Below, in pieces: positions 7,348 through 64,000 of a DNA stretch of 64,000 nucleotides. Under the pieces are notes generated by a model. It had not been told where the DNA came from, did no database searches, and saw only the letters and a program-made list of their open reading frames with translations. How positions within the stretch are numbered: position 1 is the stretch's first letter; every line of letters starts with the position of its first letter. Origin of the DNA: a virus; IMG/VR virus record IMGVR_UViG_3300029112_000175, positions 1,552-65,551 of that record; one strand, written 5' to 3'. Position numbers and translations under genes: made by a program.

Positions 7348-7362
7348 TTATATATTCTCCTT

Positions 7363-9357
7363 TTACTGATGAATCATTGCCATTAGCTCTTCTTCTGTAA
7401 TGATCGGAATACCTAATGATTTTGCTTTCTTATTCTTCGAGCTGCTAGAATTAATATCATTATTTACGAGGTATGAAGTCTTGGCGCTCACAGTATCAGA
7501 TACCTTACCACCATATGCCAAGATCTCCGCTTTAGCAGCGTCTCGAATGGTATAGTGATTTAAACTACCAGTAATGACAAATGTCCTACCTTCCAACTTT
7601 TTAGAGTCTACGGCATTCATAGCTTCTTTTAGTGGAGATACTGGCAGTTCAAAGATAAACTCTGTAGAAAGATCCATTACATCATCTATATGTTTCTTGA
7701 AATAAGTATTCATAGAGCCAATAAGTGAATCACCTACACCTGGCAGATGTCTGAAATAATCTGCTCCTTCTACAGTCATTACATGAATGAATGTTCCGTA
7801 ATCACTATCTACTGCTTCAGCGATTGCAGCACTTGCTGTCTTACCCAAAAGTGGAATTGAAAGTGAATATAGGAAACGAGATAAAGTTGTATTACGACTT
7901 GCTTCGATAGAGCTAAGAAGTTTATCTACAGACTTTTTGCCAAAACCATCTAAGGTTTTCATTACTTTTTCATGGGAATGTAGATAATAAATATCTTTAA
8001 TGGAAGTGAGCCAACCAAGAGAAATGAATTTTTCGATTGTTGACTCTGACAGGCCATCAATATTTAATGCATTGCGGCTTACTGCGTGAGTAAGTTTTCC
8101 AAGGAGTTTACCTTTACAATCTGGATTAGTACAAAAAAGCTGTTTGGAGTCATTTTCTTTTATAATCTGAGTCTTACCACCACAAATAGGACAAGTATCA
8201 GGAATGTGGATAAATTGAATATTTGCACTACAGCTATCAGTTTTTTCTCCCCATGTCACCTGCGGTATAATTTGGTTTTTCTTGCATACGCCAATTTCCT
8301 GACCTTTGAATGGTTTATGTAAAAGATCAGCCATAATAGAAATGTTATGCAATGAAGCCCTTTCAACAATTGTCTGTTCTAGTTCCACGGGTTCAAAGAC
8401 CGCAACAGGAGTTAAAACGCCAGTCTTACCCATTCCCCATTCAATATCTTTTAATGTGGTTGTAACTTCCTCATCATAAAATTTAAATGCTAAGGAATGT
8501 CTCGGATGATGTCCTGTCATACCAAGAGATTTACCATATTCTACATCATTGTATGTAATAACGAGACCATCGATAGGATATGATTTTTCTTCTGCGACAG
8601 CTTTTAATTCATCAATGATCTTATTAATGTCATCTTTATCACTGTTATAAAGAATGTATGGAACAACTTCAAAACCTTGCTCTTTTGCATAATTAAATCC
8701 ATCAGTAAATCTTGTAAATCCATATGGCACTTTCCATGCAACAAATCTTATATGACGTTCTTTTGCAATCTTACTATCCAGCTGACGTACCGATCCAGAA
8801 GCAAGATTTCTTGGATTCTTATACTTATCGTCCTCTGCTAATTTACTATTGATCTTTTCAAAATCTTCTTTGGTGATAATTGCTTCGCCTTCGATTTCAA
8901 ACTTATGCGTATTTGAAACCTTTAGCGGTAAATTATCAAAGACTTTAGCATTATGAGTGATCAATTCACCAATCTCACCATTGCCACGAGTTTCACCCTG
9001 AATTAAGCTGCCATTCTCAAAAGTACATAGTGTTGTTAATCCGTCTAACTTTAAAGAAATAATACAATCTCTTCCATCAGAAAACTTAACTAGATCATCT
9101 GTTGCTTTGGTTTTGTCCAAAGATAACATTGGATGTGAGTGTGTTATCTTTTCCAGTTTTGACTTTACTTCATACCCTACTGTCTGGGTAGGTGAGTTAC
9201 CATAAATAATATTCGTTTCATGCTCTAACTGCTCTAACTCATCATACAGATTGTCGTATTCATAATCACTCATTGGACTATTTGAGTTATTATAATACTG
9301 ATTACGAGCATCATTTAGAACTGTAATAAGCTCTTTAATTCTCTGTACTTTGTCCAT
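7363..9357 (-). CDS. ligA: NAD-dependent DNA ligase
   Basis: KLDG adenylation motif (ISLKLDGLT). Zn finger CPICGGK...CTNPDC. C-terminal HhH/BRCT region. 664 aa. SD AAGGAGCG before the ATG. Confidence 0.9.
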   Translation of the reverse strand: MDKVQRIKELITVLNDARNQYYNNSNSPMSDYEYDNLYDELEQLEHETNIIYGNSPTQTVGYEVKSKLEKITHSHPMLSLDKTKATDDLVKFSDGRDCIISLKLDGLTTLCTFENGSLIQGETRGNGEIGELITHNAKVFDNLPLKVSNTHKFEIEGEAIITKEDFEKINSKLAEDDKYKNPRNLASGSVRQLDSKIAKERHIRFVAWKVPYGFTRFTDGFNYAKEQGFEVVPYILYNSDKDDINKIIDELKAVAEEKSYPIDGLVITYNDVEYGKSLGMTGHHPRHSLAFKFYDEEVTTTLKDIEWGMGKTGVLTPVAVFEPVELEQTIVERASLHNISIMADLLHKPFKGQEIGVCKKNQIIPQVTWGEKTDSCSANIQFIHIPDTCPICGGKTQIIKENDSKQLFCTNPDCKGKLLGKLTHAVSRNALNIDGLSESTIEKFISLGWLTSIKDIYYLHSHEKVMKTLDGFGKKSVDKLLSSIEASRNTTLSRFLYSLSIPLLGKTASAAIAEAVDSDYGTFIHVMTVEGADYFRHLPGVGDSLIGSMNTYFKKHIDDVMDLSTEFIFELPVSPLKEAMNAVDSKKLEGRTFVITGSLNHYTIRDAAKAEILAYGGKVSDTVSAKTSYLVNNDINSSSSKNKKAKSLGIPIITEEELMAMIHQ

Positions 9358-16263: not shown

Positions 16264-16765
16264 GTTCTAACACCTCTTTAGGGCAAAAAACAATTTCCTT
16301 ACCAGCCTTTTGAGCTTTGCGAATCGTAGACCAAACACCGCCAGATTTGTTTCCGTCCCAAATTGCTAATAATACATCACAATGATCAACCATGTATTGA
16401 TCTCTTACATTATCACAGCCTTTATAGAATTCATCTGATAATTCTACCCATTCATCTGCATACTTCTTCATGTCTTTATAAAATGGATGCGATGAATTAT
16501 AATTTTTACATGGCAGAACACAATGTAACACTAATGGAATAATTCTATTTACTTTTGCTAATGCGGCTACAGTTCCAAATACAAAATCGCTTCCAGAAGC
16601 CATACCACAATAAACTTCCAAATTTTTTCCATTTAAATAAGAAACTTCATTCATTTTAAAAAGCTGTTCTATAATCCATTCTTCAATTTTCTTCCAGGCG
16701 ATATCTGATTCATCTTCTGGCAGTCCTAATCTTTGTGGTCTATGACCTGTTAATGCTACTCTCAT
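16232..16765 (-). CDS. SLOG-superfamily YpsA/DUF1273-like Rossmann protein
   Basis: ALTGHRP resembles the YpsA AITGYKP motif. CGMASGSDFVFGT and DVLLAIWDGNKSGG are also similar to YpsA blocks. Confidence 0.5.
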   Translation of the reverse strand: MRVALTGHRPQRLGLPEDESDIAWKKIEEWIIEQLFKMNEVSYLNGKNLEVYCGMASGSDFVFGTVAALAKVNRIIPLVLHCVLPCKNYNSSHPFYKDMKKYADEWVELSDEFYKGCDNVRDQYMVDHCDVLLAIWDGNKSGGVWSTIRKAQKAGKEIVFCPKEVLEHDGNYSSQRC

Positions 16766-36229: not shown

Positions 36230-37108
36230 TTACTCTTCACCAACAAAAACTAATCTATCAATATATTCTCTACCTTCGCCCTTGAAAATAGGGATATCTA
36301 TATCAATAATCCACTCATTTTCAGACTTAGAAGTATCTCTTAACTGCGCAGTTGTCATGACACTATCAGTTTCAATAACAATCTTATTTCTTACACAACA
36401 GCTTCCTCTCTTCTGATAAGTCGGTAAATCGTTCCAGTTAATACCTTTCTGAGTAATAAGCATATCCTGAATATCATTGCATGATTTATTCTGTAATTCT
36501 TTATGTGAGAAATTAGCTTGACCTACCATCTGAATTGAGTTATGAGAAGCGTCTAATTGCCTCCAATATACGAGATTTGTTACTTCTTCTTTTGGAATAT
36601 TGAAACAACGAGCATCGAACATTGCACCTTTGTCAACTGCTTTTGTGTAAATTTGACACATTTCATATTCTGGTGTACCTTTCCCATACCACCCATTGAT
36701 TTCATGTTCTGTTGCATAACACTGTTCAAAATCCTCTACATTCTTGGAAAAAGCTTTATTAAAAGCCATCGTAGCCATACTTGCCGCAATACTACAAATC
36801 TTCTGTACTTCATAATCAAACCATGCTGAAGATGTGAGCTTCTTATAATCAACAAGAATCAATGTAATCTCATCTGACTGCGTGTAACCAAGAACACAGC
36901 CCTGAATATTCTCGCATAAGTATTTCATTGTTTCCTGCATTGACTTAATTAACACTTCATCAAACGGCTTATGGAATCCTCTTGTGAATGTATGGAACGC
37001 CTTTCCATCAATTCTGATAGCAACTGGACACCTTCTCATTAATTTTGTCTTAGGAATCTGCTCATAAAATGTCTTCATGCGACAGCCTAAATCATCATGT
37101 ACTGGCAT
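36230..37108 (-). CDS. Thg1-like protein (tRNA-His guanylyltransferase family, 3'-5' nucleotidyltransferase)
   Basis: N-terminal block FYEQ...RCPVAIRIDGKAFHTFTRGFHKPFDEVLIKSMQETMKYL...GYTQSDEITLIL aligns closely with eukaryotic Thg1 (YVVVRLDGRNFHRFA..KPND..AYGQSDEYSF). SD AGAGAGGT precedes the ATG. Confidence 0.75.
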   Translation of the reverse strand: MPVHDDLGCRMKTFYEQIPKTKLMRRCPVAIRIDGKAFHTFTRGFHKPFDEVLIKSMQETMKYLCENIQGCVLGYTQSDEITLILVDYKKLTSSAWFDYEVQKICSIAASMATMAFNKAFSKNVEDFEQCYATEHEINGWYGKGTPEYEMCQIYTKAVDKGAMFDARCFNIPKEEVTNLVYWRQLDASHNSIQMVGQANFSHKELQNKSCNDIQDMLITQKGINWNDLPTYQKRGSCCVRNKIVIETDSVMTTAQLRDTSKSENEWIIDIDIPIFKGEGREYIDRLVFVGEE

Positions 37109-42017: not shown

Positions 42018-42788
42018 TTACAATACCTGTACGATCTGCTCATACAGGATCATATCCTTATCATTGATTGCTCTATTGACATGCATATGTCCCATGAACC
42101 AATACTTATATTCGGTTTCTGCTCTAATATTCTCCAAATACTTCGTAAGAATATCCTGTTCATACAAACCTTGTCCTAACAATGCAATAACTGATGCAGG
42201 CGGACTATGAGTGATAATATAATCTACTACATTATTATTCTCTTTTAATTTGTCCAATCCATATTGCATTTCCTGATCAGTTGGAAGTTCTTCTTCCCAC
42301 CAAGTCAGATCTTTTACACGGTACATCCATTTACCGTTTACTTCCAATTCCTTGGCTTGTTCTCGCCAATCCTCATCGTTATAATCAAGAATACCATCTG
42401 AAATATCGTGCGAACTTGCACCACCGAATGTAAAGAATTTTTTACCCTGAATATTGAAAACCTCACCACGCATCATATGTAGAACATGTGGTCTAATTTC
42501 ATGAATCATACCACCATGCCATTCTTTTACAGGATATGTAGCCATTCTTTTATGGTTCTCATGGTTCCCATCTACAAATAGTGTTGTGAATGGTTTATCT
42601 TCTAACCAGTCTAACCAATAATGCTCTGATTTTCTTTCACAATCACGCTGCCATACAAGACCAAAATCACCACAGATGATTACAAAATTTTCATCCTTGT
42701 TTCCGCTAAAATCTTTTTGTTCATAGAAACAATCTTTACTGAACCTGCTTACATCCGCATGGCAATCGCCTGTTACAAATACACTCAA
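42018..42788 (-). CDS. calcineurin-like metallophosphoesterase
   Basis: VFVTGDCHAD, IICGDFG, FVDGNHENH and a GGASSHD..THSPP motif series. Confidence 0.65.
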   Translation of the reverse strand: MSVFVTGDCHADVSRFSKDCFYEQKDFSGNKDENFVIICGDFGLVWQRDCERKSEHYWLDWLEDKPFTTLFVDGNHENHKRMATYPVKEWHGGMIHEIRPHVLHMMRGEVFNIQGKKFFTFGGASSHDISDGILDYNDEDWREQAKELEVNGKWMYRVKDLTWWEEELPTDQEMQYGLDKLKENNNVVDYIITHSPPASVIALLGQGLYEQDILTKYLENIRAETEYKYWFMGHMHVNRAINDKDMILYEQIVQVL

Positions 42789-42817
42789 TATTTATCACTC
42801 CTTTTTATTTTTATTAC

Positions 42818-42886
42818 TTCCTCATCTTGGACTCGAACCAAGTTTTGCAGAGTGAGCTGCCGTGCTTCCTATTACACCAATGAGAA
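42818..42886 (-). tRNA. tRNA-like gene; anticodon loop noncanonical (6-nt loop CUCACU), identity undetermined
   Basis: Minus-strand sequence TTCTCAT-TG-GTGT-AATAGGAA-GCAC-G-GCAG-CTCACT-CTGC-AAAA-CTTGG-TTCGAGT-CCAAG-ATGAGGA-A. Acceptor stem is perfect at 7 bp. T-arm is CTTGG/CCAAG with loop TTCGAGT. D-arm has a GG loop. No encoded CCA. Confidence 0.5.
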
Positions 42887-43034
42887 ACCATAAACGTTTT
42901 ATTAAGTGGCTCTGTTGCTTAAGTCTGCGCATCAACCAAGCAATAACAATCCGATGGGAAATTTGTTTTTAAAGTTTTACATCCTCTTGCCACCGTTCTG
43001 CGACTTTCCACATCACAGATGAATCAGAGCCAAC

Positions 43035-43106
43035 GGCGAATACCGGATTTGAACCGATACTTCTGAGATCAAACCTCAGTGTACTACCTGATTATACTAA
43101 TTCGCT
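43035..43106 (-). tRNA. tRNA-Gln (anticodon UUG)
   Basis: Anticodon stem CTGAG/CTCAG with loop GTTTGAT, giving U33, UUG and A37. T-arm ATCGG/CCGGT with loop TTCAAAT. D-arm GTAT/GTAC with GG loop. Acceptor GCGAAT/ATTCGC. No encoded CCA. Confidence 0.7.
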
Positions 43107-43142
43107 AGATGTGACTGATTTCTCAGCCACTTATTTATTCTC

Positions 43143-45144: not shown

Positions 45145-45421
45145 TCTTTATATTCCTCCAATTCATACAATCCATTGATCTTATTATCCAACTCAGCCAC
45201 TTCTTGTCTTAATTTATTTGCTTTTTTCTTACTATCTGTTTTAATATATTCAGTCCATTTTTTCTTACGTAAGTTTGTCACTTCCTTGTACAACTCATCG
45301 CAGTCTTTTTCATCTACAACTGCCAGCTCAATCTTCTCTCCACAATTGCCAGCTTCTGAGCGATAGTGGATTTACCACTACCACTCAGCCCAACAAGTAA
45401 CATCAATTTAGGTTTATTCAT
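45141..45421 (-). pseudogene. P-loop nucleotide/polynucleotide-kinase-like gene remnant, frameshifted
   Basis: ATG at 45419-45421 gives MNKPKLMLLVGLSGSGKSTIAQKLAIVERRLSWQL, then TAG. The -1 frame continues ...EKIELAVVDEKDCDELYKEVTNLRKKKWTEYIK...EYKE and ends in a TGA overlapping the next ATG. No intact ORF of 60 aa or more. Confidence 0.45.
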
Positions 45422-46733
45422 TAACCGTCTCCTTATATAATTCTTCTGCTTCTTCCATATCAGGTGCATCAGATGTGTCCTTAATTAAACCCTCACATAC
45501 TTTAAATTCAAACACTTTGTCCTTAAAAGCAGTAAATGTAGGTCTATTATCAATACGAATAACTACACCCTCTGCAATATGTGTTTTGCCAATCTCATCT
45601 GCTGGCATTCCATCAATATATTTATGTACTCTTTCCTGGAGATCTTCTGGTGTTGTAAAAATAAACTTTTCTAAGTCAGGTACATGCTTAACTCCAAGCT
45701 TATCGCACCATACTTTAACAGTTTCCCAAGGAACTTCAAACACAGTTCCATCTGCTGTTGTTGCGGTCATTCGATATACATACATTTCATTTTCGCCAGG
45801 TTTACAACCATAAGAGAATGTTGTAGTATCTCCGAATTTCTTAGTGAATTCTTTTTCTTTTACACCTCTATTAGAAACAGACCCCATAATTGGAGTAGAT
45901 TCATTTACCCATCCTACAATCTCATAAAAAACCGATAATCCTTCTGGAAGTCTGTCTTTTAATAAATCATGATATTTTTTTCTAAAACTATTATCAGAAT
46001 AATATCCATCATTCTTAGTCATATCCTTTAGCACAACTCTTCTGCTACCAGATACCACAGAAACTTCTTTAAAGATTTTCGGCGGCATATGTAATAATTT
46101 TCTCAGCCGATTAGTTTTCTTTGTAACCTTGACTGTTTTCATTGTCCTGGCTGAAGTACCGTGGAGTTTGCGAGTAATATAAATAGTATCTCCTGGTTTA
46201 AAAGCAGACATATTGTATGCAAGCTGTGCAGTATCTTTATGCTCTTCAAAGAATGGATAAGATACAGTTTCTTTAGAATTTTTATGACTCTTTTTGGAAC
46301 TTCCAGTATTATTTCTTACTCGATTTTTACCTTTGGGAATATATTTACGACAAATCTCATGACCATCCAGAACAGTGATCTGATCACCATCTTTTAATTT
46401 AGAAATGTTAGTGTATTTAGAAAGTGTTTCAATTGGTAATACAAGACCTTCAGATTTTTCTCCTCGAAGTCTGATGGCTGTTACATTTCTTTTATCAGGG
46501 TCCATATAGCCACCAGTATTATTACCATTTTCATCTTTTACTCTTATCAAATTGTTCTCTGTTGCATATTCTAATGAAAGCTGTCCATCAGAAGGAAAGA
46601 AAATAACTTTCTGACCTTCTTTATAACTTAAATCTACAATTACATTCTGCCCAAATACTTCTACACACTGCAGCCTATCTGCATTACTGTGTTTTCTCAA
46701 ACCTTTTAACGTTGTTACATAAGCACAATACAT
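45414..46733 (-). CDS. ATP-dependent RNA ligase (Rnl2-like nucleotidyltransferase) with N-terminal Myf/EMAP-type tRNA-binding OB domain
   Basis: N-terminal YVTTLKGLRKHSNADRLQCVEVFGQNVIVD...IRLRGEKSEGLVLPIETL matches the tRNA_bind (HPNADKL...LRGVxSEGM) pattern. Ligase motifs: I ITRKLHGTSAR, III FYEIVGW, IV IAEGVVIRID, V FKDKVFEFK. Confidence 0.6.
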   Translation of the reverse strand: MYCAYVTTLKGLRKHSNADRLQCVEVFGQNVIVDLSYKEGQKVIFFPSDGQLSLEYATENNLIRVKDENGNNTGGYMDPDKRNVTAIRLRGEKSEGLVLPIETLSKYTNISKLKDGDQITVLDGHEICRKYIPKGKNRVRNNTGSSKKSHKNSKETVSYPFFEEHKDTAQLAYNMSAFKPGDTIYITRKLHGTSARTMKTVKVTKKTNRLRKLLHMPPKIFKEVSVVSGSRRVVLKDMTKNDGYYSDNSFRKKYHDLLKDRLPEGLSVFYEIVGWVNESTPIMGSVSNRGVKEKEFTKKFGDTTTFSYGCKPGENEMYVYRMTATTADGTVFEVPWETVKVWCDKLGVKHVPDLEKFIFTTPEDLQERVHKYIDGMPADEIGKTHIAEGVVIRIDNRPTFTAFKDKVFEFKVCEGLIKDTSDAPDMEEAEELYKETVNE

Positions 46734-48567: not shown

Positions 48568-50178
48568 CTATTCGATACACTTAAAAGATACATCTGTTCT
48601 ACGATTCATAGCCTTATGTTCATCTGTATCATTATCTACTATAGGTTTACTAGATCCATTACCTACAGTAATAATTCTATCAGCAGAAATTCCATTTAAT
48701 ACAAAATACTGTTTTACAGTTTCTGCTCTCTGCTGAGATAACATCTTATTGGCAGTATCTTCAGGATCAGAATATGGATTAGGGTCAGTATTACCAGCAA
48801 TCTCAATAATTGTTCCATCCAGAACTTTCGCAATACTGATAAAGTCATCTAATTTCTGAGTAGCTTCAGCGGAGTCAGTAAACTTTGCGGTATTAATAAT
48901 AAAGTTTACCGTTGCAGATTTCTGTAATAATGCAGTAGTATCAAGTACCTCCTGTTTATTCTCTTCTGTGACAGTTACATTTACATCAGTCTTTGTAATA
49001 TCCTGTGCATCGTACTTAGTTTCCAGTTTAGAAACATAAGTATTATCAAAAATAGTATTTAATAAATCCCTATTTACAGTTTCACCAATAGATTCCCAAA
49101 CTCCACACATATCAGAAAAAATTGTCTTTGCAGTTCCATTAAGTAAACTCATGTTATCAGCATATGTGCATAATTTTGCAGATTCACAATTTCCTAAAAT
49201 ATCCTCATCAGAGGCAGTAGAAAACATCGGCATGACAGACTTAATAGTAGTTAAATCAGTAGTGTATAAATCAGCCGCCTGAAAAGCGCCATCAATAAAT
49301 GCAGTTACAGTATCTGGATATTTCTTTGCAAAATCATCATTAAATAAAATTCCATCCATAATTAAACTGGAAGAACTTGCAGTGCTAAATAGGATATGTG
49401 CATCAGACATATTCTGTGCCTGAGTTAAATATGGTTCCCATGTTGCAGCTACATCAATCTGGCCTGCAAAGAAAGCTTTTGCTGCTTCATCTGGTGTTTC
49501 AAAATATACAAGATTATTAATAATAGAATCTTTTTCTTCCTGGGTTAAATCAGACTGGTTTACAAACCAAACCACTAAAGAATGAGCCTCTGAGAACTGT
49601 GGAACGCCAATTTTTGCATTTACTAAATCAGATACAGAATTAATAGAAGATTTTGTGATAATGCCATCTCCACCATTAGAGAAATTGCTGATGTATGGCA
49701 TAATTACATTTAGGCCTGCGTCCTGAAACTTTTTAGATAAGAAAGCGGTTCTGTTAATGGTATAGCCTGCTGCATCTAATTTCCCACTAATTAAAGCGTT
49801 GCTAGACTGGGTTGCATCATTGATGATGCTAATATTTACTTTTATTCCAAGTTTGTCATAGATGGAACCTGGTTGTGTGGTAAGCCCGTTGTTGGCGTCA
49901 ATAATTGGTTTCCAACCGATCCACTCATCAAGAGACACATTGATTGTTTTATCATCTACCTTATCAGTGTTAATTACGTTACCATCATCATCCGCTGCTA
50001 CAGGAGCTGCCATCTCTGGCTGTTTAGAGGTGTTTTCTGTCTTTGTAGTTTCTTTTTTACTGTGTTTAATAAATCCTGTTTTTAATCCTAAAACTACACC
50101 GCCACCAATTAATGCCATGATAAGAATCATGATCAATACTTTTGCTGCTTTAGTCAGCCGAAATCTTCTTGTACTCAT
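48568..50178 (-). CDS. Membrane-anchored NMT1/SsuA-like substrate-binding domain fused to C-terminal OmpA/MotB peptidoglycan-binding domain
   Basis: N-terminal TM helix (VLIMILIMALIGGGVVLGL). Central periplasmic-binding-protein-like region. C-terminal OmpA signature NTDPN...AMNRRTDVSF. Confidence 0.5.
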   Translation of the reverse strand: MSTRRFRLTKAAKVLIMILIMALIGGGVVLGLKTGFIKHSKKETTKTENTSKQPEMAAPVAADDDGNVINTDKVDDKTINVSLDEWIGWKPIIDANNGLTTQPGSIYDKLGIKVNISIINDATQSSNALISGKLDAAGYTINRTAFLSKKFQDAGLNVIMPYISNFSNGGDGIITKSSINSVSDLVNAKIGVPQFSEAHSLVVWFVNQSDLTQEEKDSIINNLVYFETPDEAAKAFFAGQIDVAATWEPYLTQAQNMSDAHILFSTASSSSLIMDGILFNDDFAKKYPDTVTAFIDGAFQAADLYTTDLTTIKSVMPMFSTASDEDILGNCESAKLCTYADNMSLLNGTAKTIFSDMCGVWESIGETVNRDLLNTIFDNTYVSKLETKYDAQDITKTDVNVTVTEENKQEVLDTTALLQKSATVNFIINTAKFTDSAEATQKLDDFISIAKVLDGTIIEIAGNTDPNPYSDPEDTANKMLSQQRAETVKQYFVLNGISADRIITVGNGSSKPIVDNDTDEHKAMNRRTDVSFKCIE

Positions 50179-50190
50179 ATATGTTCTCTC

Positions 50191-50928
50191 CTACTTATTA
50201 TATTTTTTCTTTAAAGAATCCAGATAATCATTACTACTATTTTTTCTCGCTTCAACTTCTGCTTTTGCTAATTTGGTAGACATTTTATTTTCATGAACTA
50301 CCCTAGAACCTTCTACAATAGCATTAAGATCTTTATTTTTTTCTCTTACAGAATCAAGCATTTTATCAGTAGCAGTGACATTTTTCAATTCGTCCATGTC
50401 ATCATAGACTTCCTGCAACTGTTTCTTTACTTTCATATTCTCTACAACTTCTTTACTCTCACGCTTCAATTTTCTGAGATTCTGTTCGCAGCGTTCTTGA
50501 GTTTCTTTCGCAGCAGCTGTTGCTTTTTCATACGCAGCCACAAGCTCCGTACAACGATTAATATCGGCAATAACTTCTTCTCTTTCTTCTGCTTTCAACT
50601 GTGCCAGATCCATCTTGCCCGCTTTTACTAAAGACTCACAATCAGTTTCCGTCTTCTTTAACTTATTTTTAAGAACTTCCATGTCCTTTTTAGCATTGCT
50701 TAGTTTACCAGCAGCAAGCTTATAAGCATTATCAGCTTTGTTGTAGGAATCTTGTGCCTGACTAATTTTCTCACCATAGATAGCTTCTGCTCCTTCTGGT
50801 GTAGTAGCCATATCTTTAATGAATAGTCTTGTCCATCCCATTAAAAGTGTTCTTGCTTCTGGGAACATAATTAGAATTACAACAAAAAGAAAAATAACCA
50901 CGCCAACAACAATAGTTTTCAGATCCAT
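50191..50928 (-). CDS. PspA/IM30-like coiled-coil membrane-stress protein
   Basis: N-terminal TM helix, then a PspA-like helical pattern (...EGAEAIYGEKISQAQDSYNKADNAYKLAAGKLSNAKKDMEVLKNKL...). Confidence 0.4.
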   Translation of the reverse strand: MDLKTIVVGVVIFLFVVILIMFPEARTLLMGWTRLFIKDMATTPEGAEAIYGEKISQAQDSYNKADNAYKLAAGKLSNAKKDMEVLKNKLKKTETDCESLVKAGKMDLAQLKAEEREEVIADINRCTELVAAYEKATAAAKETQERCEQNLRKLKRESKEVVENMKVKKQLQEVYDDMDELKNVTATDKMLDSVREKNKDLNAIVEGSRVVHENKMSTKLAKAEVEARKNSSNDYLDSLKKKYNK

Positions 50929-51464
50929 TAGACCTCACCTCCTACAAATGAAATCAACTTATTAATTCTATTTGCTTCAACAACAATAGTTTCAGTAGAA
51001 GCTTTTAACTCGGCCTGTTCCTGTGCAATATTTTTTTCTAATTCTGCAATTGTTTCTTTAGCTGCTTCAATTCTTTCCTGATAATCAGCAATCAAACTGT
51101 CTTTTTCAGAAGTAATTTTATTTAAAGCAGCGTTTAAAACTTCTACTCTTTTATTGCCATCTGCGACAACTTCTTCTGATGTAAGACCAAATACTCCAAG
51201 GGCAGATAACACACTGTTCTTTTTTGTTTCAGTAACCATTTCTTTTGGCAGAGCATTCATCAAATCTTCAATCTTAAAGATGGATTTAGACTGATCGTAT
51301 AATTCATTCTGTGCGTAAATATCAGATACAAGCGTTTCTGTATTTACCACATCAAGATTGATATTCGCGTCTTCTTCATAAATTGAGTCGCTTGTTTCTA
51401 ATCTCTGTTCCATTAGAGTGTCATCAACTTCTTCAACTAATCCAAGTTTTTTTAATAATCCCAT
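50928..51464 (-). CDS. coiled-coil hypothetical protein
   Basis: ORF abutting neighbours. Confidence 0.4.
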   Translation of the reverse strand: MGLLKKLGLVEEVDDTLMEQRLETSDSIYEEDANINLDVVNTETLVSDIYAQNELYDQSKSIFKIEDLMNALPKEMVTETKKNSVLSALGVFGLTSEEVVADGNKRVEVLNAALNKITSEKDSLIADYQERIEAAKETIAELEKNIAQEQAELKASTETIVVEANRINKLISFVGGEV

Positions 51465-51479
51465 ATTGTCTCTCCTCTT

Positions 51480-52091
51480 TTATAAATTTATAATCACATC
51501 ACACATTTTCTTTGCTTCTTCATTACTGTGTGTAACTATGATCACTGTATTATTCTCTACTTTATGTTGTTTTAACACGAGATTCTGCATTGTAGTTCTA
51601 GTTTGCGGATCAAGTGCAGATAACGGTTCATCCATTAATATAATTGCCGGTTTTGTAAATAATGTTCTGGCTAAAGCTAATCGTTGTCGCTGCCCTCCAG
51701 ATAATTGTTTCGGAAACTTTTTTTCGTAATTTTCAAGACCGACCTGTTTTAAAAAATCTTTTGCCAATTTAACATCTTCTTTTGTAACAGATCTTTTTAT
51801 TTTAACTGGCAATAAAATATTCTCTAAACAGTTCATCCAATCAAATGAAGTATAATTTTGGTGCATCATGAAAATATTGTTCTTTGAAGCTTTGGTTATT
51901 TTTTCTCCATCTACAATTATTTCACCATTTAATGGCTTCATTAATCCGGCAATTGTTCTAAGCAACGTTGTTTTTCCACAGCCAGATTCTCCTAAAATTC
52001 CATAAATTTTTTTATCGAATTTCATTGAATAATTTTTTAGTAATGGCTTATCTCTACTATAGCCAGTGGTTAGATCTTTTAATTTAATCAT
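51480..52091 (-). CDS. ABC transporter ATP-binding protein (NitT/TauT-type)
   Basis: Walker A GESGCGKTT. Signature LSGGQRQRLALAR. Walker B IILMDEPLSALD. Confidence 0.75.
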   Translation of the reverse strand: MIKLKDLTTGYSRDKPLLKNYSMKFDKKIYGILGESGCGKTTLLRTIAGLMKPLNGEIIVDGEKITKASKNNIFMMHQNYTSFDWMNCLENILLPVKIKRSVTKEDVKLAKDFLKQVGLENYEKKFPKQLSGGQRQRLALARTLFTKPAIILMDEPLSALDPQTRTTMQNLVLKQHKVENNTVIIVTHSNEEAKKMCDVIINL

Positions 52092-52830
52092 CTAAATACC
52101 TCCATTTAAATGCCCATTTAATTATTCTCTTACTAGCCCAATCAAATATGACGCTGATAATCATAATTACCATAATTGCCATAAAAACCATATCCGTTCT
52201 TCCTCTTGAGGAGCTTTGCTGAATAATCCATCCCAATCCGTAATGTGCATTAATTGTTTCTGCCACGGCAATGTATGTAAAACCGATACCGTACATCATT
52301 ACGAAGCTATTTAATATACTTGGCAGTGAAGCAGGAAGCTGAATTTTATATACAGTTTGTAGTTTATTCATTCCTATAGTCAAACCCGTATCAATCAAAT
52401 CCTGATTCACTTCTTCCAAACAGAGAATTACAGATGGCATCATATATACGAATGTTGCGATAAATAAGAACACAATCTTCATAAGTTCATCAATCCCAAA
52501 CCACATAATAAGTAAAGGATAAAATGCTGTAACTGGGATATATCTTAATGCACTGATAATTGGATTTAAAAAATCTTTTATTAATGGAATATTGAAAATT
52601 AATAGAGCTATTGGTAAAGAAATTATTGATGAAAGAATTGCTGCTATAGTCACTCTAAAAAAAGAATATTTAATCGCAATAAATATTTCTCCATTACATA
52701 TCAATACATATAAATTCCTAAATACGCTTTTAGGACTTGGTACAAAAATAGGATTATAATATCGTGCAGTAGTTGACCAGATCAAAAAAATACACAGAAT
52801 CAATAAAAATCTTTTTAATATATTTTTCAT
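52084..52830 (-). CDS. ABC transporter permease (TauC/SsuC-like)
   Basis: Six predicted TM segments. EAA-like loop IAVAETINAHYGLGW. Confidence 0.55.
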   Translation of the reverse strand: MKNILKRFLLILCIFLIWSTTARYYNPIFVPSPKSVFRNLYVLICNGEIFIAIKYSFFRVTIAAILSSIISLPIALLIFNIPLIKDFLNPIISALRYIPVTAFYPLLIMWFGIDELMKIVFLFIATFVYMMPSVILCLEEVNQDLIDTGLTIGMNKLQTVYKIQLPASLPSILNSFVMMYGIGFTYIAVAETINAHYGLGWIIQQSSSRGRTDMVFMAIMVIMIISVIFDWASKRIIKWAFKWRYLDD

Positions 52831-53207: not shown

Positions 53208-53606
53208 TTATTCTCCATTTCCAACAACATTCTCAATGTTATGCAACATTTCAAGAATCTCTACTGCATTTCCACTAAACATATTGCCAGTGGTTTTAAT
53301 CTCATACTGCCACTTGTTTTTATCAGAAATGGTGATAACTGGAATGCTGCCGTACAAAACTGTTCCTGCCGGTATGCTCCATGCTGGTGTATACCATGAT
53401 CCTTTGCAGTGCCATTCATTTTTAAGAACCTTTAATTGCTGCTGACAATTCTTGTTATATGATCTCATGCCAGCTCTATTGACTGGATATACTCTCGGAT
53501 ACTCCACGCCTTCGATGTACAATGGTTCAAACTTGTTTACAACAAGTAAAACTCCATCTGTAATTCTGTAAATATCCTGATATTCTGTCTGTACTACTGC
53601 CTTCAT
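53208..53606 (-). CDS. hypothetical protein
   Basis: ORF in array. Confidence 0.4.
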   Translation of the reverse strand: MKAVVQTEYQDIYRITDGVLLVVNKFEPLYIEGVEYPRVYPVNRAGMRSYNKNCQQQLKVLKNEWHCKGSWYTPAWSIPAGTVLYGSIPVITISDKNKWQYEIKTTGNMFSGNAVEILEMLHNIENVVGNGE

Positions 53607-53610
53607 ATGC

Positions 53611-54825
53611 TCACCTCAATTCAATCAGATACTTAATAGTACATTGCTCTTCTTTGTAAACAATAATCTCATCATTACGCAGCATATCTCCCGCATGAGC
53701 GTGTAAACAATTCGCACCAGGACAAACGGATTGAAGTTTACTGTAATCAAAGCTGTAATATTTACTATCGAAGGAATACACATCATATGGTTTACCATAA
53801 GCTACATCCATTAATGCCATAAAACCAAAATTGGAATCACCTCTAACCCAATAGCTTCCACTCAAACTGGTATAACCAAGAGATTTTCTAGCTTTTGGTG
53901 CATAATAAATACCATACCCAAACATCTTACCCGTGATGACAGCATTAGTTGGTTTTAAGACAAGACCACTATTGATGATGAACCACCAATTTTCATTCCT
54001 GCTACCATGGAACAATAACTTTGTCTCCGTAATATTATTCTCTTTTACAAAATCATCAAAACGTTTCTGCGTCTTAAGGTTTTTGACTTTCCATGCCTTA
54101 TGGAATTTATCAGAGCATGATCCAAGTGCATCTTTAATAATAGCGATATCCTTTTTATCACATTCTTCGAATACCAGTCCCAACTGCTCAAGAATTGTAT
54201 TCTTGATTTTTACATCATTTTCCGCTTTTGTTTCTTCAATGACCTGTTTCTGTACGACCTGTCCTTTCATAACATCGAGCAGATCCTGTTCTTTTTGAAT
54301 AATCTCAGAGAAATTATTGCTAGACTTAGCAAGATAATCTGAAACGTATCCCATTTTTCTAGGAATAACAGTAAAGAGTTTTAACAGAATATTATTAAAT
54401 TCTTCAACTTCTTTAATATCAAGTAAACTTGTCAAAACATCTTGTGCTTCATCCACCATTGCCTGAGTTACTTTGTTAGAAGAAATCGTATAATTGTCGC
54501 TGATAGCTTTTCGTGCCATTGCTTGTAATCGTTCTACAATCTCAGCAATAACTTTATTTTCAATTTCTTTATATTCTGAGTTTTTAGGTTTTTCAACCTG
54601 AATTAAGTCTTCTACAAGTTCACTCTGATCAACATAGCCTTTGCGAAGTTTTTCTTTATATTTTGATTCCCACTGACTCATAGAATACTCTCTATGTTGT
54701 GGACTGCTTCCTACCCTTCCGTATTCAGCAGTCCAACTATCTCCATGAGGAATCTGTTTATAATATTTATTATTATTCGCAGAAGCAGTGACCATCACTA
54801 AATATCTTGGTTTGATCTCTGCCAT
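53611..54825 (-). CDS. PARP-like ADP-ribosyltransferase (WGR domain + helical domain + H-Y-E catalytic domain)
   Basis: N-terminal WGR-like HGDSWTAEYGRVGSS. C-terminal LLFHGSRNENWWFIINSGL...TGKMFGYGIYYAPKARKS...DEIIVYKEE aligns with PARP1 LLWHGSR...TGYMFGKGIYFAD...NEYIVY. His, Tyr and the catalytic Glu are all present. Confidence 0.75.
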   Translation of the reverse strand: MAEIKPRYLVMVTASANNNKYYKQIPHGDSWTAEYGRVGSSPQHREYSMSQWESKYKEKLRKGYVDQSELVEDLIQVEKPKNSEYKEIENKVIAEIVERLQAMARKAISDNYTISSNKVTQAMVDEAQDVLTSLLDIKEVEEFNNILLKLFTVIPRKMGYVSDYLAKSSNNFSEIIQKEQDLLDVMKGQVVQKQVIEETKAENDVKIKNTILEQLGLVFEECDKKDIAIIKDALGSCSDKFHKAWKVKNLKTQKRFDDFVKENNITETKLLFHGSRNENWWFIINSGLVLKPTNAVITGKMFGYGIYYAPKARKSLGYTSLSGSYWVRGDSNFGFMALMDVAYGKPYDVYSFDSKYYSFDYSKLQSVCPGANCLHAHAGDMLRNDEIIVYKEEQCTIKYLIELR

Positions 54826-54834
54826 ATATTCTCC

Positions 54835-55272
54835 TTATAATGTACAAACTAAAATCTCAATATCAGTATCAAAAAATACATCCTCTAACATTTCATATAC
54901 TCGATCCCATTCAAGCTGATCGAGGCCACACCCAATACGTGGCATTGCGATTTTAGTGATGTCATATTCTTCACAATAATCACGCATATCCACTAAAGTA
55001 TCATATAATGTTTCATATATAGGTTTGTGATAGCAACGAGGCTTTGTAACCAGATTAAATACGTTGTCAATGAGTAATGCTTTTCCTACATTATCGTATT
55101 TTTCTCCTTCTGGAATTGGATACTGACTATGTAATTTATATCTCATGTTATATACATCTACAAACTGCTTTGCAATACCAGCACCTAACGCATAATCACC
55201 ACTGATACAATGGGCCAAATAATAACCCTGTGGTACTGTAAATAAATCTCTCTGTTCTTCTTTAATATTCAT
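54835..55272 (-). CDS. macro-domain-like protein (ADP-ribose binding/hydrolase)
   Basis: LAHCISGDYALGAGIAKQF and IAMPRIGCGLDQLEW resemble macro-domain Gly-rich loops. Immediately upstream of, and co-directional with, the PARP gene. Confidence 0.5.
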   Translation of the reverse strand: MNIKEEQRDLFTVPQGYYLAHCISGDYALGAGIAKQFVDVYNMRYKLHSQYPIPEGEKYDNVGKALLIDNVFNLVTKPRCYHKPIYETLYDTLVDMRDYCEEYDITKIAMPRIGCGLDQLEWDRVYEMLEDVFFDTDIEILVCTL

Positions 55273-55315: not shown

Positions 55316-55612
55316 CTAAACAATAATTATTTCATTATATCTACGCAAAAGCTCTTCTCTATTTTCTATAACATATCTTTTTGCGTAATTATATCTTGAT
55401 TTTTTTATATTTCCTTTAAGAACACTACCATCAATTAGACTAATAACAGCCTCTTTGTCTTGATATTGAATATGAACATGCGGGAGATTATGACCGTTTT
55501 CTTTTGTGTGCATAATTATTTTGATGCCAAAATCGCTATATAATATGTTATAATAACGTTCATCTTCAAATATATATATTGCAAATTTTAGTCCATACTC
55601 TCCCATATTCAT
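55316..55612 (-). CDS. DUF4160-like small protein
   Basis: NGHNLPHVHIQY motif. Confidence 0.4.
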   Translation of the reverse strand: MNMGEYGLKFAIYIFEDERYYNILYSDFGIKIIMHTKENGHNLPHVHIQYQDKEAVISLIDGSVLKGNIKKSRYNYAKRYVIENREELLRRYNEIIIV

Positions 55613-55635: not shown

Positions 55636-56361
55636 TTACTCTAAATTCTCTCTTGAAAATAACTGACATGCGATTCCGCAATCTTCCATTACTTCAAGAT
55701 CCATACGTCCACGTTTAGGATCAAGTTCATCCAGGAATACACCTTTGATACAGCTATGACCAATTTCTCTTTCCTCCTTGGCTCTGCGTTCAAAAACTTC
55801 GGGGAAATCTACTCGAATTTTATTCCAGTAGCCCATGCCACCTTTTACGCATCCAACGCAATTGTTGTTAGGATAACCTAACTCATACATCATTGGTCTC
55901 TTTAATCCAAGTTTCTTCGCCAATGCATGACAATCTTCTTTCGTAAATTTATTCTCGATTAATGGAAATTCATGATCATAATCTGTCATGGTATTTACTA
56001 AACGATCAGCTCTACGCTGCTCATTCATATCATATCCCCATACATAAATATGGTGATCTGGATGTTCTTTCTCCCATTGTTTTCGCACTTCTTTCTTTAA
56101 AAACTTAGTACAAGGCGCACCATATGGTGTATTAATACAACGAGTCTTCATAATCACATCATCAACATCTTTAAATCTGGTAGATTGCAATATTGTGATC
56201 TTTCTACCAAGAAGTTTCTCGCAATCATGCAGAAATCTCAGACTATCAGGATGCTGATTAGGAACGTGAGTATAAATAATCTCATCTACGTCCTTTGCTA
56301 AATAACATGCTACAAAACTACTAATTCCTGTACTAAACCAACAAACTTTCACACCAGCCAC
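55636..56361 (-). CDS. PAPS-reductase-family (PP-loop ATP pyrophosphatase, CysH-like) protein
   Basis: N-terminal VKVCWFSTGISSFVACYL (PP-loop-like). C-terminal Cys pair NNCVGCVKGG. Confidence 0.5.
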   Translation of the reverse strand: MAGVKVCWFSTGISSFVACYLAKDVDEIIYTHVPNQHPDSLRFLHDCEKLLGRKITILQSTRFKDVDDVIMKTRCINTPYGAPCTKFLKKEVRKQWEKEHPDHHIYVWGYDMNEQRRADRLVNTMTDYDHEFPLIENKFTKEDCHALAKKLGLKRPMMYELGYPNNNCVGCVKGGMGYWNKIRVDFPEVFERRAKEEREIGHSCIKGVFLDELDPKRGRMDLEVMEDCGIACQLFSRENLE

Positions 56362-58436: not shown

Positions 58437-59399
58437 TCAGGATTCTCTGGTAAAGAAGTATTTTTTCTTATCATAAGCTAATCTTTTATCCAACTCATCC
58501 ACCAACTCATAAAATTCAGGAATCGGCTGATCGTTACCGTCCAGATATTTACCATTGCGAATATCCATCAATAAGTCATGTTCTTTTCCTCTGTATGTAA
58601 CAATTTTTTCATTCTCTAAAATGTCAAAACACATATAATAAAGACGAACTAAATGCATCATGTGTTTTCCTAGTTTTCCATGTTCGATAGCATTCTGATT
58701 ACGCTTCCCAATCTTCGCATAATCTTTTACTACACAGTTCATTTCAGACCACATTGCTTTATAATCTCTCAATGGATAATGTTTAAAATTCATATCCATG
58801 AAAATTTCTGTATTATAATCTTCTTTATCTGACTTATCAATATAGAGCTTAAGTGAATCTTCTGGATAATAAGCATATTTGCTAGGAAATGTATATACGG
58901 CATTCATAATACTATTGAGAATATGTTGTTCTCTTTCTTCTTGCCCTACTACTCTTGCCGCCTTATTACTTAAACGCCGAAGCTGCTGGTTCGCATAACC
59001 ACCAAAAGAATACACAGCTTTCCTGGATAAAAATAAATGGGCATTATCTAATAATTCCTGACCAATCGGTGTTACGTATAAATAATGCTCAGGCTTTAAT
59101 CCTAACAACTCAATAGTATTAGGATTTACATTCAGTAATAACGAAACTAACTTATTGAACGAATATATTGTTGTATCAGTCTGTTCATTTACGAACTGTT
59201 CAAAATTCTGATTAGTCAAAATATCCATCTTGCTATTTAAGGCACAGCCGCGGCAATCCAAGTCCGAATTCTCTACATTAGTGCCATAGGCATAACTACC
59301 ACCCAAACCAAGAAGAATAATATTCTTTCCAAGATGCTCATTGGTTCTTAGAAAATCATATTCTCCACTACTGACTTTTTTCTTAATCTCATCAATCAT
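58437..59399 (-). CDS. Pol-beta-superfamily nucleotidyltransferase
   Basis: LLGLGGSYAYGTNVENSDLDCRG matches the GS-x(9-13)-DxD minimal NTase motif. A helical C-terminal domain follows. Confidence 0.5.
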   Translation of the reverse strand: MIDEIKKKVSSGEYDFLRTNEHLGKNIILLGLGGSYAYGTNVENSDLDCRGCALNSKMDILTNQNFEQFVNEQTDTTIYSFNKLVSLLLNVNPNTIELLGLKPEHYLYVTPIGQELLDNAHLFLSRKAVYSFGGYANQQLRRLSNKAARVVGQEEREQHILNSIMNAVYTFPSKYAYYPEDSLKLYIDKSDKEDYNTEIFMDMNFKHYPLRDYKAMWSEMNCVVKDYAKIGKRNQNAIEHGKLGKHMMHLVRLYYMCFDILENEKIVTYRGKEHDLLMDIRNGKYLDGNDQPIPEFYELVDELDKRLAYDKKKYFFTRES

Positions 59400-63016: not shown

Positions 63017-64000
63017 TTACCTCAATCTAATATCTTCTCTTGTTTCTCCATCAGAATAATATATATTCCAACCTTTAAATAGGCTAATCAATTCTTCGTC
63101 GTCCCAGTCACATTCATTGCAATGCATAAGTGCTAATGATTTCTTATTTCCAAAATCTCCTACATCCTTACTGCATCTGTTATACAATTCTTTTAAATCT
63201 AATGTTCCATATCTCAATGTATCCTGGAATGGATTTGGTATATTAGTTTTATCAAAAATATATTTGTTGATCTGATTTTTATCACACTCTGATGGAAATT
63301 TTCCTGTACCATGCCGTGTAAGATATGTACGAGACACATAACAAGTTTCAATGTTTATCTCTTCATTCCATTCACCATTTTCAATTATTCTCTTGGGATT
63401 TTTAATACCTGTATTAGATGGTGTTAGATGTGGAAAATATTCTGTGTTATTCTGATCAAGCAATAAACCTTGTGCAGCTTCAAATACAATATTATCAAAC
63501 TGATTTAAGAAATAATTATCTGATATAGCCAATGAGTGATTATTCATAAAATCCCAATCATCTAAAAAGTGTTCAAATATACCATTATCAAGGAATATTC
63601 TTGACCATTCATCTGTTAATATAATATTCTCTCTTTCAAATTGTTCTAAGTAATATTCCCTGATATGATCATCTACATCAGTTATACCAGCTTTATATCT
63701 TTTGATAGTTTCAAAAATTCCCAAGCCACAACTACCATGTTTATTTTTTCCACGATTTTCCTCTATAATCTGATTTGCCATCATATCAAAAGGTGTAGTC
63801 AACATACAATCTTGATTGATATAAACATTTGGGATATATCCTAATTTCATCAACTCATCATATTCCTGCTTAAAAATAATTGGATTAACAATAAAATCCT
63901 CAGATAAATATGTACTTGCATGAGTGAATGTTCCAGATCCAAAATGATGAAAGACATGTCTGATTCCATCAGGCGTTGTTACGGTATGTCCTCTCTGAGC
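63017..64000 (-). CDS. Adenylosuccinate-synthetase (PurA)-family protein, divergent (partial; N-terminus beyond window end)
   Basis: The ORF stays open in frame to the window edge; the ORF track begins at a TTG. The upstream translation AQRGHTVTTPDGIRHVFHHFGSG matches PurA GGHNAGHTLV..LHLIPSG. ENRGKNKHGSCGLGIFETIKR matches GTTGRGIGPAYEDK. FEAAQGLLLDQNNTEYFPHLTPSNT matches [24 protein letters not shown]. Confidence 0.6.
   Translation of the reverse strand, partial: AQRGHTVTTPDGIRHVFHHFGSGTFTHASTYLSEDFIVNPIIFKQEYDELMKLGYIPNVYINQDCMLTTPFDMMANQIIEENRGKNKHGSCGLGIFETIKRYKAGITDVDDHIREYYLEQFERENIILTDEWSRIFLDNGIFEHFLDDWDFMNNHSLAISDNYFLNQFDNIVFEAAQGLLLDQNNTEYFPHLTPSNTGIKNPKRIIENGEWNEEINIETCYVSRTYLTRHGTGKFPSECDKNQINKYIFDKTNIPNPFQDTLRYGTLDLKELYNRCSKDVGDFGNKKSLALMHCNECDWDDEELISLFKGWNIYYSDGETREDIRLR

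Follow-up and report, generated by a model that had tools for sequence, protein, structure and literature searches.

Eukaryotic DNA repair depends centrally on PARPs, which are also major drug targets. In eukaryotic single-strand-break repair, PARP1 and PARP2 act together with DNA ligase III and XRCC1, in which the BRCT domain is of the type that reads poly(ADP-ribose) (PAR). Among bacterial enzymes, the PARP of Herpetosiphon aurantiacus needs DNA for activity, the PAR made by it and by the PARP of Clostridioides difficile is reversed by their own PARGs, and known bacterial PARPs are said to be accompanied by a PARG plus a MacroD (PMC8120803). The eraser TARG1 uses Lys84 and Asp125 as its catalytic pair (PMC8120803), and a bacterial TARG1 removes mono-ADP-ribose and PAR alike; in Fusobacterium mortiferum the FmTARG1 gene belongs to a polymorphic-toxin-like operon, and the genome has no PARP (PMC6397177). 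As AdfM shows, a stand-alone phage macrodomain is able to work on ADP-ribose attached to DNA (PMC13309987). Reports of phage PARPs with an intact H-Y-E triad go back to 2014 (PMC4245714), and such enzymes have been discussed in jumbo-phage surveys (PMC7824862, PMC9503650) and in a study of gut 'NAD-jumbo phages' with LigA, which notes the co-occurrence of PARP and LigA (PMC11662467). Our literature search found no description of a conserved TARG1-PARP(-ligase) cassette and no experiment on any phage PARP. Here we analyze a 64,000-nucleotide stretch of viral DNA (hereafter the window; positions 1,552 to 65,551 of IMG/VR record IMGVR_UViG_3300029112_000175) in which a PARP gene, encoding a putative 'writer' of ADP-ribose, is preceded by a gene for a TARG1-like macrodomain protein, its candidate 'eraser'.

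The two open reading frames (ORFs) lie exactly where a preliminary description of this DNA had placed them, on the minus strand (Table 1). The motifs it quoted (LLFHGSRN, TGKMFGYGIYYA, DEIIVYKEE and EYGRVG) are all present, as is the nicotinamide adenine dinucleotide (NAD)-dependent DNA ligase LigA that it reported elsewhere in the genome. Its overlap of start and stop codons was an error: the TAA stop of the macrodomain gene, at 54835–54837, is followed by a 9-nt spacer that contains a GGAG ribosome-binding site serving the PARP gene, and the PARP ATG begins at 54825. The macrodomain gene is itself preceded by a ribosome-binding site, AGGAGG. Coupling between the two genes is tight, without overlap. 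A consensus scan for promoters and terminators returned sites no more numerous than in shuffled sequence, so the term 'operon' rests here on spacing and conservation rather than on mapped signals, and because all substantial ORFs of the window lie on the minus strand, it denotes tight coupling within a long co-directional gene array. Because a nucleotide-level comparison of the locus with 50,697 phage records by megablast gave zero matches, protein-level searches were needed; the matches that these gave for both proteins lie far beyond chance expectation.

The 404-aa protein matched the Pfam PARP catalytic domain (PF00644, E = 1.5e-22, residues 240–403) and the Pfam WGR domain (PF05406, E = 4.4e-6, residues 7–68), both above the curated cut-offs, and its full-length match in PHROGs was phrog_23333 (E = 1.8e-58). 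Searching the PDB with phmmer returned human PARP2 (E = 3.8e-13) and PARP1 (E ~2e-11), with the PARP2 alignment spanning the WGR domain, a helical regulatory domain (query residues 99–230) and the ADP-ribosyltransferase (ART) domain. The WGR domain and H-Y-E triad recognized in the preliminary description are therefore upheld by Pfam, the PDB and the family alignment, and the helical domain that it missed is added to them. Aligned motifs of the phage PARP and human PARP2 read LLFHGSR and LLWHGSR, GKMFGYGIYYA and GYMFGKGIYFA, and NDEIIVY and YNEYIVY, so that H273, Y307 and E386 fall at the positions of the catalytic His, Tyr and Glu of PARP2. This alignment identifies H273-Y307-E386 as the predicted triad, with G274, S315 and Y318 as the nicotinamide-site residues (the Gly after the His, and the Ser and Tyr of K-S-x-x-Y). 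In the ART domain, H273, G274, S275, Y307, K314, S315, Y318 and E386 are invariant in 82 of 82 homologues.

Across the same 82 family members, N19, K20, G36, R37, K59, K62, G63 and Y64 of the WGR domain are invariant, and the motifs NNNKYY, Y-G-R and K..KGY are invariant or nearly so. These three regions have been linked to DNA-dependent activity in bacterial PARPs, among which Tyr in place of the Trp of 'WGR' is common (PMC5966428). An AlphaFold2 model made from 58 input sequences (predicted local distance difference test [pLDDT] 82.6, predicted template-modelling score [pTM] 0.71) contains helices at 91–111, 121–134, 140–153 and 169–202. Its best Foldseek matches in the PDB were the WGR, helical and catalytic domains of PARP1 on a DNA break (4dqy_C and 4opx_C, template-modelling score 0.68), and PARP2 on a DNA break (6x0l_P) was also matched across all three domains. 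The Pfam PARP_reg model gave no match in the protein, as has also been reported for clade-1 bacterial PARPs (PMC5966428), and the helical domain was established from the PDB alignment and the structure model. The phage PARP shares with human PARP2 and PARP1 and with the PARPs of H. aurantiacus and C. difficile CD160 the WGR-helical-catalytic core, the H-Y-E triad, the Gly/Ser/Tyr of the NAD site and the G-R and NNNK(Y/F)Y motifs of the WGR domain, and its predicted fold superposes on DNA-break-bound chains of PARP1 and PARP2. Unlike them, it is phage-encoded, is only ~18–20% identical overall, has Tyr as its first WGR residue and lacks zinc fingers, a BRCT domain and an N-terminal tail. Its relatives place it in the Clostridiales/Cytophagales 'clade 1' of bacterial PARPs.

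The upstream macrodomain protein, for which an eraser function had been suggested, is by sequence a plausible eraser and, specifically, a TARG1-like one. It matched Pfam Macro above the curated cut-off (E = 4.9e-5), and phmmer aligned it over its full length (query residues 7–145) with human TARG1/OARD1 in the PDB (4j5r, E = 1.4e-26), at 42% identity over 139 aa. The catalytic K84 and D125 of human TARG1 are conserved as K77 and D118, and the glycine-rich ADP-ribose-binding loops LGAGIA (GAGIA) and PRIGCGLD align with the TARG1 loops. The protein has the same size, catalytic Lys/Asp and loops as human TARG1 and FmTARG1, and differs from both in being phage-encoded and coupled to a PARP gene. 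Among partner macrodomains at related loci, the catalytic Lys is kept in 78 of 81 and the catalytic Asp in ~60%. Profiles for DarG matched the macrodomain part only (PADLOC, E = 2.2e-12; NCBIfam, E = 4.3e-10, with a score of 39 against a cut-off of 250 and positions 27–142 of a 329-position profile covered), and the match to the Thermus DarG structure was weak (5m31, E = 0.005). The C-terminal DarT-binding domain of DarG is absent from the 145-aa protein, and the adjoining gene encodes a PARP, not a DarT. On sequence, then, the protein is far closer to TARG1 than to DarG. We also considered a PARG as the partner and rejected it: no PARG family was found among the neighbours and other window proteins scanned, and the macrodomain has no QEE motif of the PARG signature, GGG-X6-8-QEE. 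The cassette resembles bacterial PARP-PARG (plus MacroD) systems in combining a PARP writer and a macrodomain-fold hydrolase in one genome; it differs from them in its tight two-gene layout and in a partner of the TARG1 type, which cleaves the acceptor bond, rather than a PARG, which cleaves ribose-ribose bonds.

To follow the pair beyond the window, our main sample comprised 80 IMG/VR viral loci whose PARPs are 59–98% identical to the window PARP. A TARG1-like gene lies directly upstream on the same strand in 77 of the 80, a strongly positive outcome for the co-occurrence check that the preliminary description had suggested. The gap between the genes is −16 to +13 nt in 74 of 80 loci with both ORFs delimitable, and in the other six a single gene is inserted between them. 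The same arrangement recurs in Clostridia genomes and metagenome-assembled genomes (MAGs) and in further metagenome contigs. The outer neighbours of the pair at 90 loci fall into 28 upstream and 36 downstream gene families, and such highly variable flanks indicate that the pair moves as a unit. Pairwise-identity matrices of the PARPs and macrodomains are correlated (Mantel r = 0.80, reached by 0 of 999 permutations), and divergence is about twice as fast in the macrodomain. The slot upstream of the PARP is filled at three loci (L074, L077 and L079) by a gene for a second class of macrodomain (IICHxxNCxGVMGGGIA; Pfam Macro E = 2.7e-9), and at L070 a gene of this class lies ~500 nt downstream of the PARP, at 7698–8177. 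That a seemingly unrelated macrodomain lineage has taken the place of the TARG1-like gene is an argument that a macrodomain function is required close to the PARP. The linkage has exceptions: PARPs 54–64% identical to that of the window have no macrodomain within 6 kb at L086, L098, L102, L103 and L105, and both the Paenibacillus-type loci (L086, L102 and L105) and the Cytophagales PARPs have no adjacent one. A three-gene unit of macrodomain gene, PARP gene and the following 132-aa gene was rejected, as tblastn showed that the 132-aa ORFs after PARP in relatives are unrelated; the 132-aa gene of the window (53208–53606) is present only in its closest relatives, L008 and L009, and partly in L036.

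Earlier phage PARPs (Cellulophaga phi4:1 gp031, Xanthomonas XacN1 ORF414, Klebsiella FBKp34 gp111 and those of the gut NAD-jumbo phages) have the same full-length phrog_23333 architecture and H-Y-E triad. They are only 25–40% identical to the window PARP, and none has an adjacent TARG1-like gene: in FBKp34 a macrodomain of another kind lies 2.4 kb upstream of the PARP, and in the others no macrodomain occurs within 4–5 kb. The FBKp34 macrodomain is of the second class (IICHxxNCxGVMGGGIA...NLFGQ), and a search for hidden macrodomains with Pfam and a custom TARG1-family hidden Markov model near the PARPs of Cellulophaga, Klebsiella and Xanthomonas phages and of LR756500 recovered this one only.

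Further variants of the two genes were observed. At L032 (4986–5990) and L033 a P-loop domain (Pfam AAA_28, E = 3e-6) is fused to the N-terminal side of the TARG1-like domain. We take the AAA_28 family to include NadR-type ribosylnicotinamide kinases, and this fusion may hint at a link to NAD+ salvage. The macrodomain of L023–L026 has an N-terminal extension of ~80–95 aa if the ORF is taken to the first possible in-frame start, and Pfam gave no match within it. Cytophagales PARPs (L108–L129; 37–39% identical) carry a 40–60-aa N-terminal extension and are followed by a conserved protein of ~101–104 aa (~7145–7480; motif 'TTTL..VKN.LR..GY'), which may be a different PARP partner; a related segment lies beside the PARP in L111 (7200–7574) and L112 (5398–5937). 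Two independent contigs of the distant environmental huge-phage PARP clade (L130, 5327–6328, and the P0151 locus) encode a DUF7487 protein of ~330 aa after the PARP.

The genes around the cassette bear on its possible role. The commonest gene directly upstream encodes an NAD-dependent LigA with a BRCT domain (24 of 90 loci), and others in this position encode an ATP-dependent DNA ligase (9), DNA polymerase III alpha (8), NT5C (5) and an ERCC4 nuclease (3). Of 83 close-clade loci, 44 have a DNA ligase gene no more than 6 kb from the PARP, a strong enrichment because a 13-kb interval is only a few per cent of a 200–500-kb genome, with the counts inflated by the many loci that are close relatives. 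The ligases are of both NAD- and ATP-dependent types, lie on either side of the PARP and occur in at least eight distinct arrangements; variants without a macrodomain have the order PARP, small protein, ATP-dependent ligase. In Cellulophaga phage phi4:1 a ligase is two genes away from the PARP, and at L133 Sak, DnaB and DnaG are among the PARP neighbours. These neighbourhoods (DNA ligases, DNA polymerase III alpha, ERCC4, Sak and DnaB/DnaG) point to the handling of DNA nicks and breaks in phage replication, and we infer that LigA is a functional partner of the PARP pair, though it lies outside the cassette in this window. With eukaryotic PARP1/2-dependent single-strand-break repair the phage system would share a predicted nick-sensing PARP and a DNA ligase, its LigA neighbour carrying a BRCT domain; unlike the eukaryotic case, the analogy is one of gene neighbourhood only, and no scaffold protein is known.

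A small protein with the motif 'DGSKGVAKC...TG.KIAY.RA' and a weak DUF7291 match is often encoded directly downstream of the PARP (Table 1). It is this protein that separates PARP from the ATP-dependent ligase in the variants without a macrodomain.

From the domain identities, the conservation of catalytic residues and the gene linkage described above, we propose an activity, a mode of activation by DNA, targets and a role. In our favoured reading, to which we give an even chance, the cassette is a module for reversible ADP-ribosylation that DNA breaks switch on and that serves the replication and repair of phage DNA. The writer would be a PARP of compact, PARP1/2/3-type design. By analogy with PARP2 and the two bacterial PARPs that have been assayed, its helical domain probably keeps it inactive until a DNA nick or break is bound by the WGR domain. 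Once activated, it would use NAD+ to ADP-ribosylate itself and nearby proteins on Glu and Asp, and possibly DNA ends; we know of no bacteria with HPF1, the cofactor that redirects eukaryotic PARPs to serine. The co-transcribed TARG1-type hydrolase would then cleave the ester bond at the acceptor and reset the system. Enzymes of the TARG1 type remove mono-ADP-ribose or an entire chain in one step, and their chemistry would suit an HPF1-less PARP because such a PARP modifies Glu and Asp. The recurrent ligase and replication or recombination neighbours suggest, by comparison with eukaryotic PARP-dependent single-strand-break repair, that the module would mark or manage nicks and breaks in replicating phage DNA, alongside replication, recombination and ligation.

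Several observations weigh against this reading. Distant phage PARPs (~26–40% identical), in Cellulophaga and Xanthomonas phages, LR756500 and environmental huge phages, lack a macrodomain gene next to them, and not every phage PARP can therefore require an eraser. In about 40% of the partner macrodomains the catalytic Asp is replaced by Asn, Gly or Ala, and their chemistry may for this reason differ from that of TARG1. In the window itself LigA lies 45 kb from the pair, the ligase link coming from relatives, and the immediate neighbours are a DUF4160/DhiT-like gene, a gene related to 3'-phosphoadenosine-5'-phosphosulfate (PAPS) reductase and SspD, and genes for two proteins without a recognizable domain. 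Many of the 80 loci are closely related, so that the counts overstate the number of independent events. An intact H-Y-E triad is no guarantee of polymer synthesis, as human PARP3 has the triad yet adds single units. Finally, the only bacterial PARPs to have been assayed, those of H. aurantiacus and C. difficile (PMC8120803), are clade-2 enzymes.

An attractive variant, which we regard as quite unlikely, keeps the link to replication and makes DNA, in place of protein, the main substrate: the PARP would modify replicating phage DNA at its bases or at the 5' or 3' phosphates of nicks and ends, and the mark would be taken off by the TARG1-like enzyme shortly ahead of nick sealing by the adjacent ligase. 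PARP1–3 can ADP-ribosylate DNA ends in vitro. In human cells, PARP1 is described as writing, and TARG1 as erasing, ADP-ribosylation of DNA (PMC11102865). If DNA were the substrate, the pair would form a viral system of reversible DNA capping or nick marking that protects phage DNA ends or times their processing, and the eukaryotic PARP-TARG1 axis of DNA ADP-ribosylation may have evolved from such a system.

The preliminary description had instead proposed manipulation of host NAD+/ADP-ribose signalling or counter-defence. We found no specific support for this proposal, the neighbourhoods pointing to nick and break handling; counter-defence is a possible function. As a form of host takeover, the PARP would (poly-)ADP-ribosylate host proteins such as RNA polymerase, translation factors or defence proteins, with the macrodomain limiting collateral modification of phage proteins or recycling automodified PARP. 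T4 Alt, ModA and ModB do modify host proteins, with mono-ADP-ribose. The faster evolution of the macrodomain would fit a conflict interface, and comparative-genomics papers propose that phage PARPs act on host targets like other phage ARTs (PMC7824862, PMC9503650). We nevertheless consider host takeover rather unlikely: the WGR and helical DNA-sensing apparatus is fully conserved and would be superfluous for a constitutive host-modifying toxin, and the replication, repair and ligase genes nearby are unlike the head-packaging context of many injected phage ARTs (PMC9503650). Host defence could also be countered by the macrodomain mainly on its own, as an AdfM-like enzyme or DarG mimic that strips DarT2-type ADP-ribose from phage DNA or degrades ADP-ribose-derived molecules, the adjacency to PARP reflecting co-regulation only. 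AdfM, a stand-alone phage macrodomain, removes DarT2 adducts from DNA (PMC13309987), and the window protein is likewise a stand-alone macrodomain, one that keeps the catalytic Lys. Human TARG1 is described as reversing DarT-type DNA ADP-ribosylation (PMC8501950), TARG1-like macrodomains occur in phages without a PARP match (among them Lactobacillus phages LP65 and LpeD, Fusobacterium Fnu1 and Bacillus phage G), and the DarG profile and 5m31 matches fit the same idea. Yet the protein resembles TARG1 (E = 1e-26) far more than it does DarG, and its near-universal and translationally tight adjacency to PARP across very different contexts, the correlated divergence of the two proteins and the different macrodomain class at the same slot are hard to explain without a functional tie, making a PARP-independent role improbable.

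The DarT-DarG comparison leads to the remaining possibility, a toxin-antitoxin-like or NAD+-depleting module in which the PARP is the toxin, through NAD+ use or toxic modification, and the macrodomain its antidote, serving superinfection exclusion, addiction or host shut-off. The cassette shares with DarT-DarG the logic of an ART-fold writer and a TARG1-related macrodomain eraser, along with the DarG profile matches. Bacterial transferase/hydrolase operon pairs are usually toxin-antitoxin systems (PMC8120803), the order of small eraser before enzyme resembles many such operons, and a DhiT-toxin-like DUF4160 gene lies just upstream. Unlike DarT-DarG, however, the writer is a WGR-helical PARP rather than a DarT, and the macrodomain-only protein has no DarG-type toxin-binding domain. 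PARPs without a nearby macrodomain at L086, L102, L105, L098 and L103, in Cytophagales and in distant phages indicate that the enzyme is not obligatorily toxic, and on this ground we rejected an obligate toxin-antitoxin pair. In addition, the phage's own LigA needs NAD+, and a hydrolase would not stop NAD+ consumption. We therefore hold a module of this type to be very improbable.

The preliminary description called PARP homologues with an intact triad rare in bacteria and phages, which is correct for reference genomes and incorrect for metagenomes, where matches at E ≤ 1e-30 formed 672 clusters (50% identity clustering), with at least 150 full-length at ~400 aa. Phage PARPs are common in metagenomes, and in the abundant gut-phage lineage to which this locus belongs a PARP is fixed beside a TARG1-type eraser and often beside a DNA ligase. 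So compact a three-protein system could allow DNA-break-triggered reversible ADP-ribosylation to be reconstituted without eukaryotic complexity. With 42% identity to human TARG1, the phage protein is relevant to the question of how the eukaryotic PARP/TARG1 pair arose, and the favoured reading, a DNA-break-activated module, offers a concrete alternative to the default 'counter-defence' interpretation of phage macrodomains.

Table 1. Coordinates of the cassette and of other features in the window; rows with a locus number (L) give positions within that locus.
Feature	Position	Strand	Basis
TARG1/OARD1-like macrodomain gene, putative ADP-ribosyl hydrolase (eraser), 145 aa	54835..55272	-	Pfam, PDB phmmer
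Intergenic spacer, 9 nt, GGAGAATAT on the coding strand, with PARP ribosome-binding site	54826..54834	-	direct reading
PARP-type ADP-ribosyltransferase gene (putative writer), 404 aa: WGR + helical regulatory + ART	53611..54825	-	
WGR domain, aa 7-68: motifs NNNKYY, Y35-G36-R37, K59..K62-G63-Y64	54622..54807	-	Pfam WGR
Helical regulatory (PARP_reg-like) domain, ~aa 91-214	54184..54555	-	PARP2 alignment + AlphaFold2 model
ART catalytic domain, aa 217-404	53614..54177	-	PARP2 alignment, family conservation
PARP triad codons H273, Y307, E386	54007-54009, 53905-53907, 53668-53670	-	codons verified
Macrodomain catalytic codons K77, D118	55042-55044, 54919-54921	-	verified
NAD-dependent DNA ligase LigA, 45 kb from the pair	7363..9357	-	phrog_3869 E = 1e-179
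'DGSKGVAKC' small protein	L070 7202-7675, L086 7202-7507, L098 7222-7692, L102 7206-7514, L074 5759-6061		
Second-class macrodomain of Klebsiella phage FBKp34, annotated 'putative phosphatase'	L002 1052-1567		
NMT1/THI5-like substrate-binding protein fused to OmpA-like C-terminal domain	48568-50178	-	
Weak PspA/IM30-like protein	50191-50928	-	
178-aa coiled-coil-like protein	between PspA/IM30-like gene and ABC ATPase	-	
ABC ATPase	51480-52091	-	
ABC permease	52084-52830	-	
RNA-repair/nucleotide-related gene set	16232-16765, 36230-37108, 42018-42788, 45414-46733, 58437-59399	-	

The source of the window is, on our best reading, probably a large phage of gut Clostridia. The window has a G+C content of ~33% and a uniformly negative GC skew, and its genes include NrdD, LigA, DNA polymerase III alpha, RecJ, DnaB, a Sak4-like annealing protein, RNA ligase, RlaP, Thg1 and two transfer RNAs (tRNAs); no structural genes were identified within it. 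The PARP has counterparts of 97–98% identity on two IMG/VR viral contigs (131 and 206 kb) and one of 84% identity on a 506-kb contig, and homologues 59–80% identical occur in Clostridia isolates and MAGs. A macrodomain 77% identical to that of the window is encoded on a 366-kb contig of the Clostridium sp. AM45-5 assembly, and the DNA polymerase is closest to those of human faecal phage contigs and of Clostridioides and Clostridium phages.

Directly upstream of the macrodomain gene, at 55316–55612 on the minus strand, lies a DUF4160 gene whose product matched the NCBIfam DhiT type II toxin model below its cut-off (E = 2.9e-12); no partner antitoxin for this protein was identified. It is preceded, at 55636–56361 on the same strand, by the gene for the PAPS-reductase-like protein (phrog_424; PADLOC SspD, E = 2e-9). 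This gene recurs near the PARP cassette at L040 (7700–8620) and at L056–L078 (~12–13 kb), in copies 87–100% identical to that of the window where the PARPs are only 63–67% identical, which indicates mosaic recombination.

On the other side of the pair, at 48568–52830 on the minus strand, is an apparently complete ABC import cassette, an unusual phage cargo (Table 1). RNA-repair and nucleotide-related genes, encoding YpsA/SLOG, Thg1, a calcineurin-like phosphoesterase, RNA ligase and RlaP, are scattered over the window. At L005–L007, where the PARP is 84% identical, Band_7, Thg1, RlaP, PTH2, Sequestin and YpsA genes lie a few kb from the macrodomain-PARP pair, and these shifts of RNA-repair genes indicate extensive rearrangement around an intact pair. 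Of the two tRNAs, the one at 42817–42887 on the minus strand was called by ARAGORN with undetermined identity and a two-base anticodon, '(ca)', and the one next to it, at 43033–43107, is a normal tRNA-Gln(ttg). A 278-aa ORF at 63017–63853, also on the minus strand, matches only the central part of adenylosuccinate synthetase (Pfam positions 93–284 of 416) and may be a truncated or divergent purine-metabolism gene.

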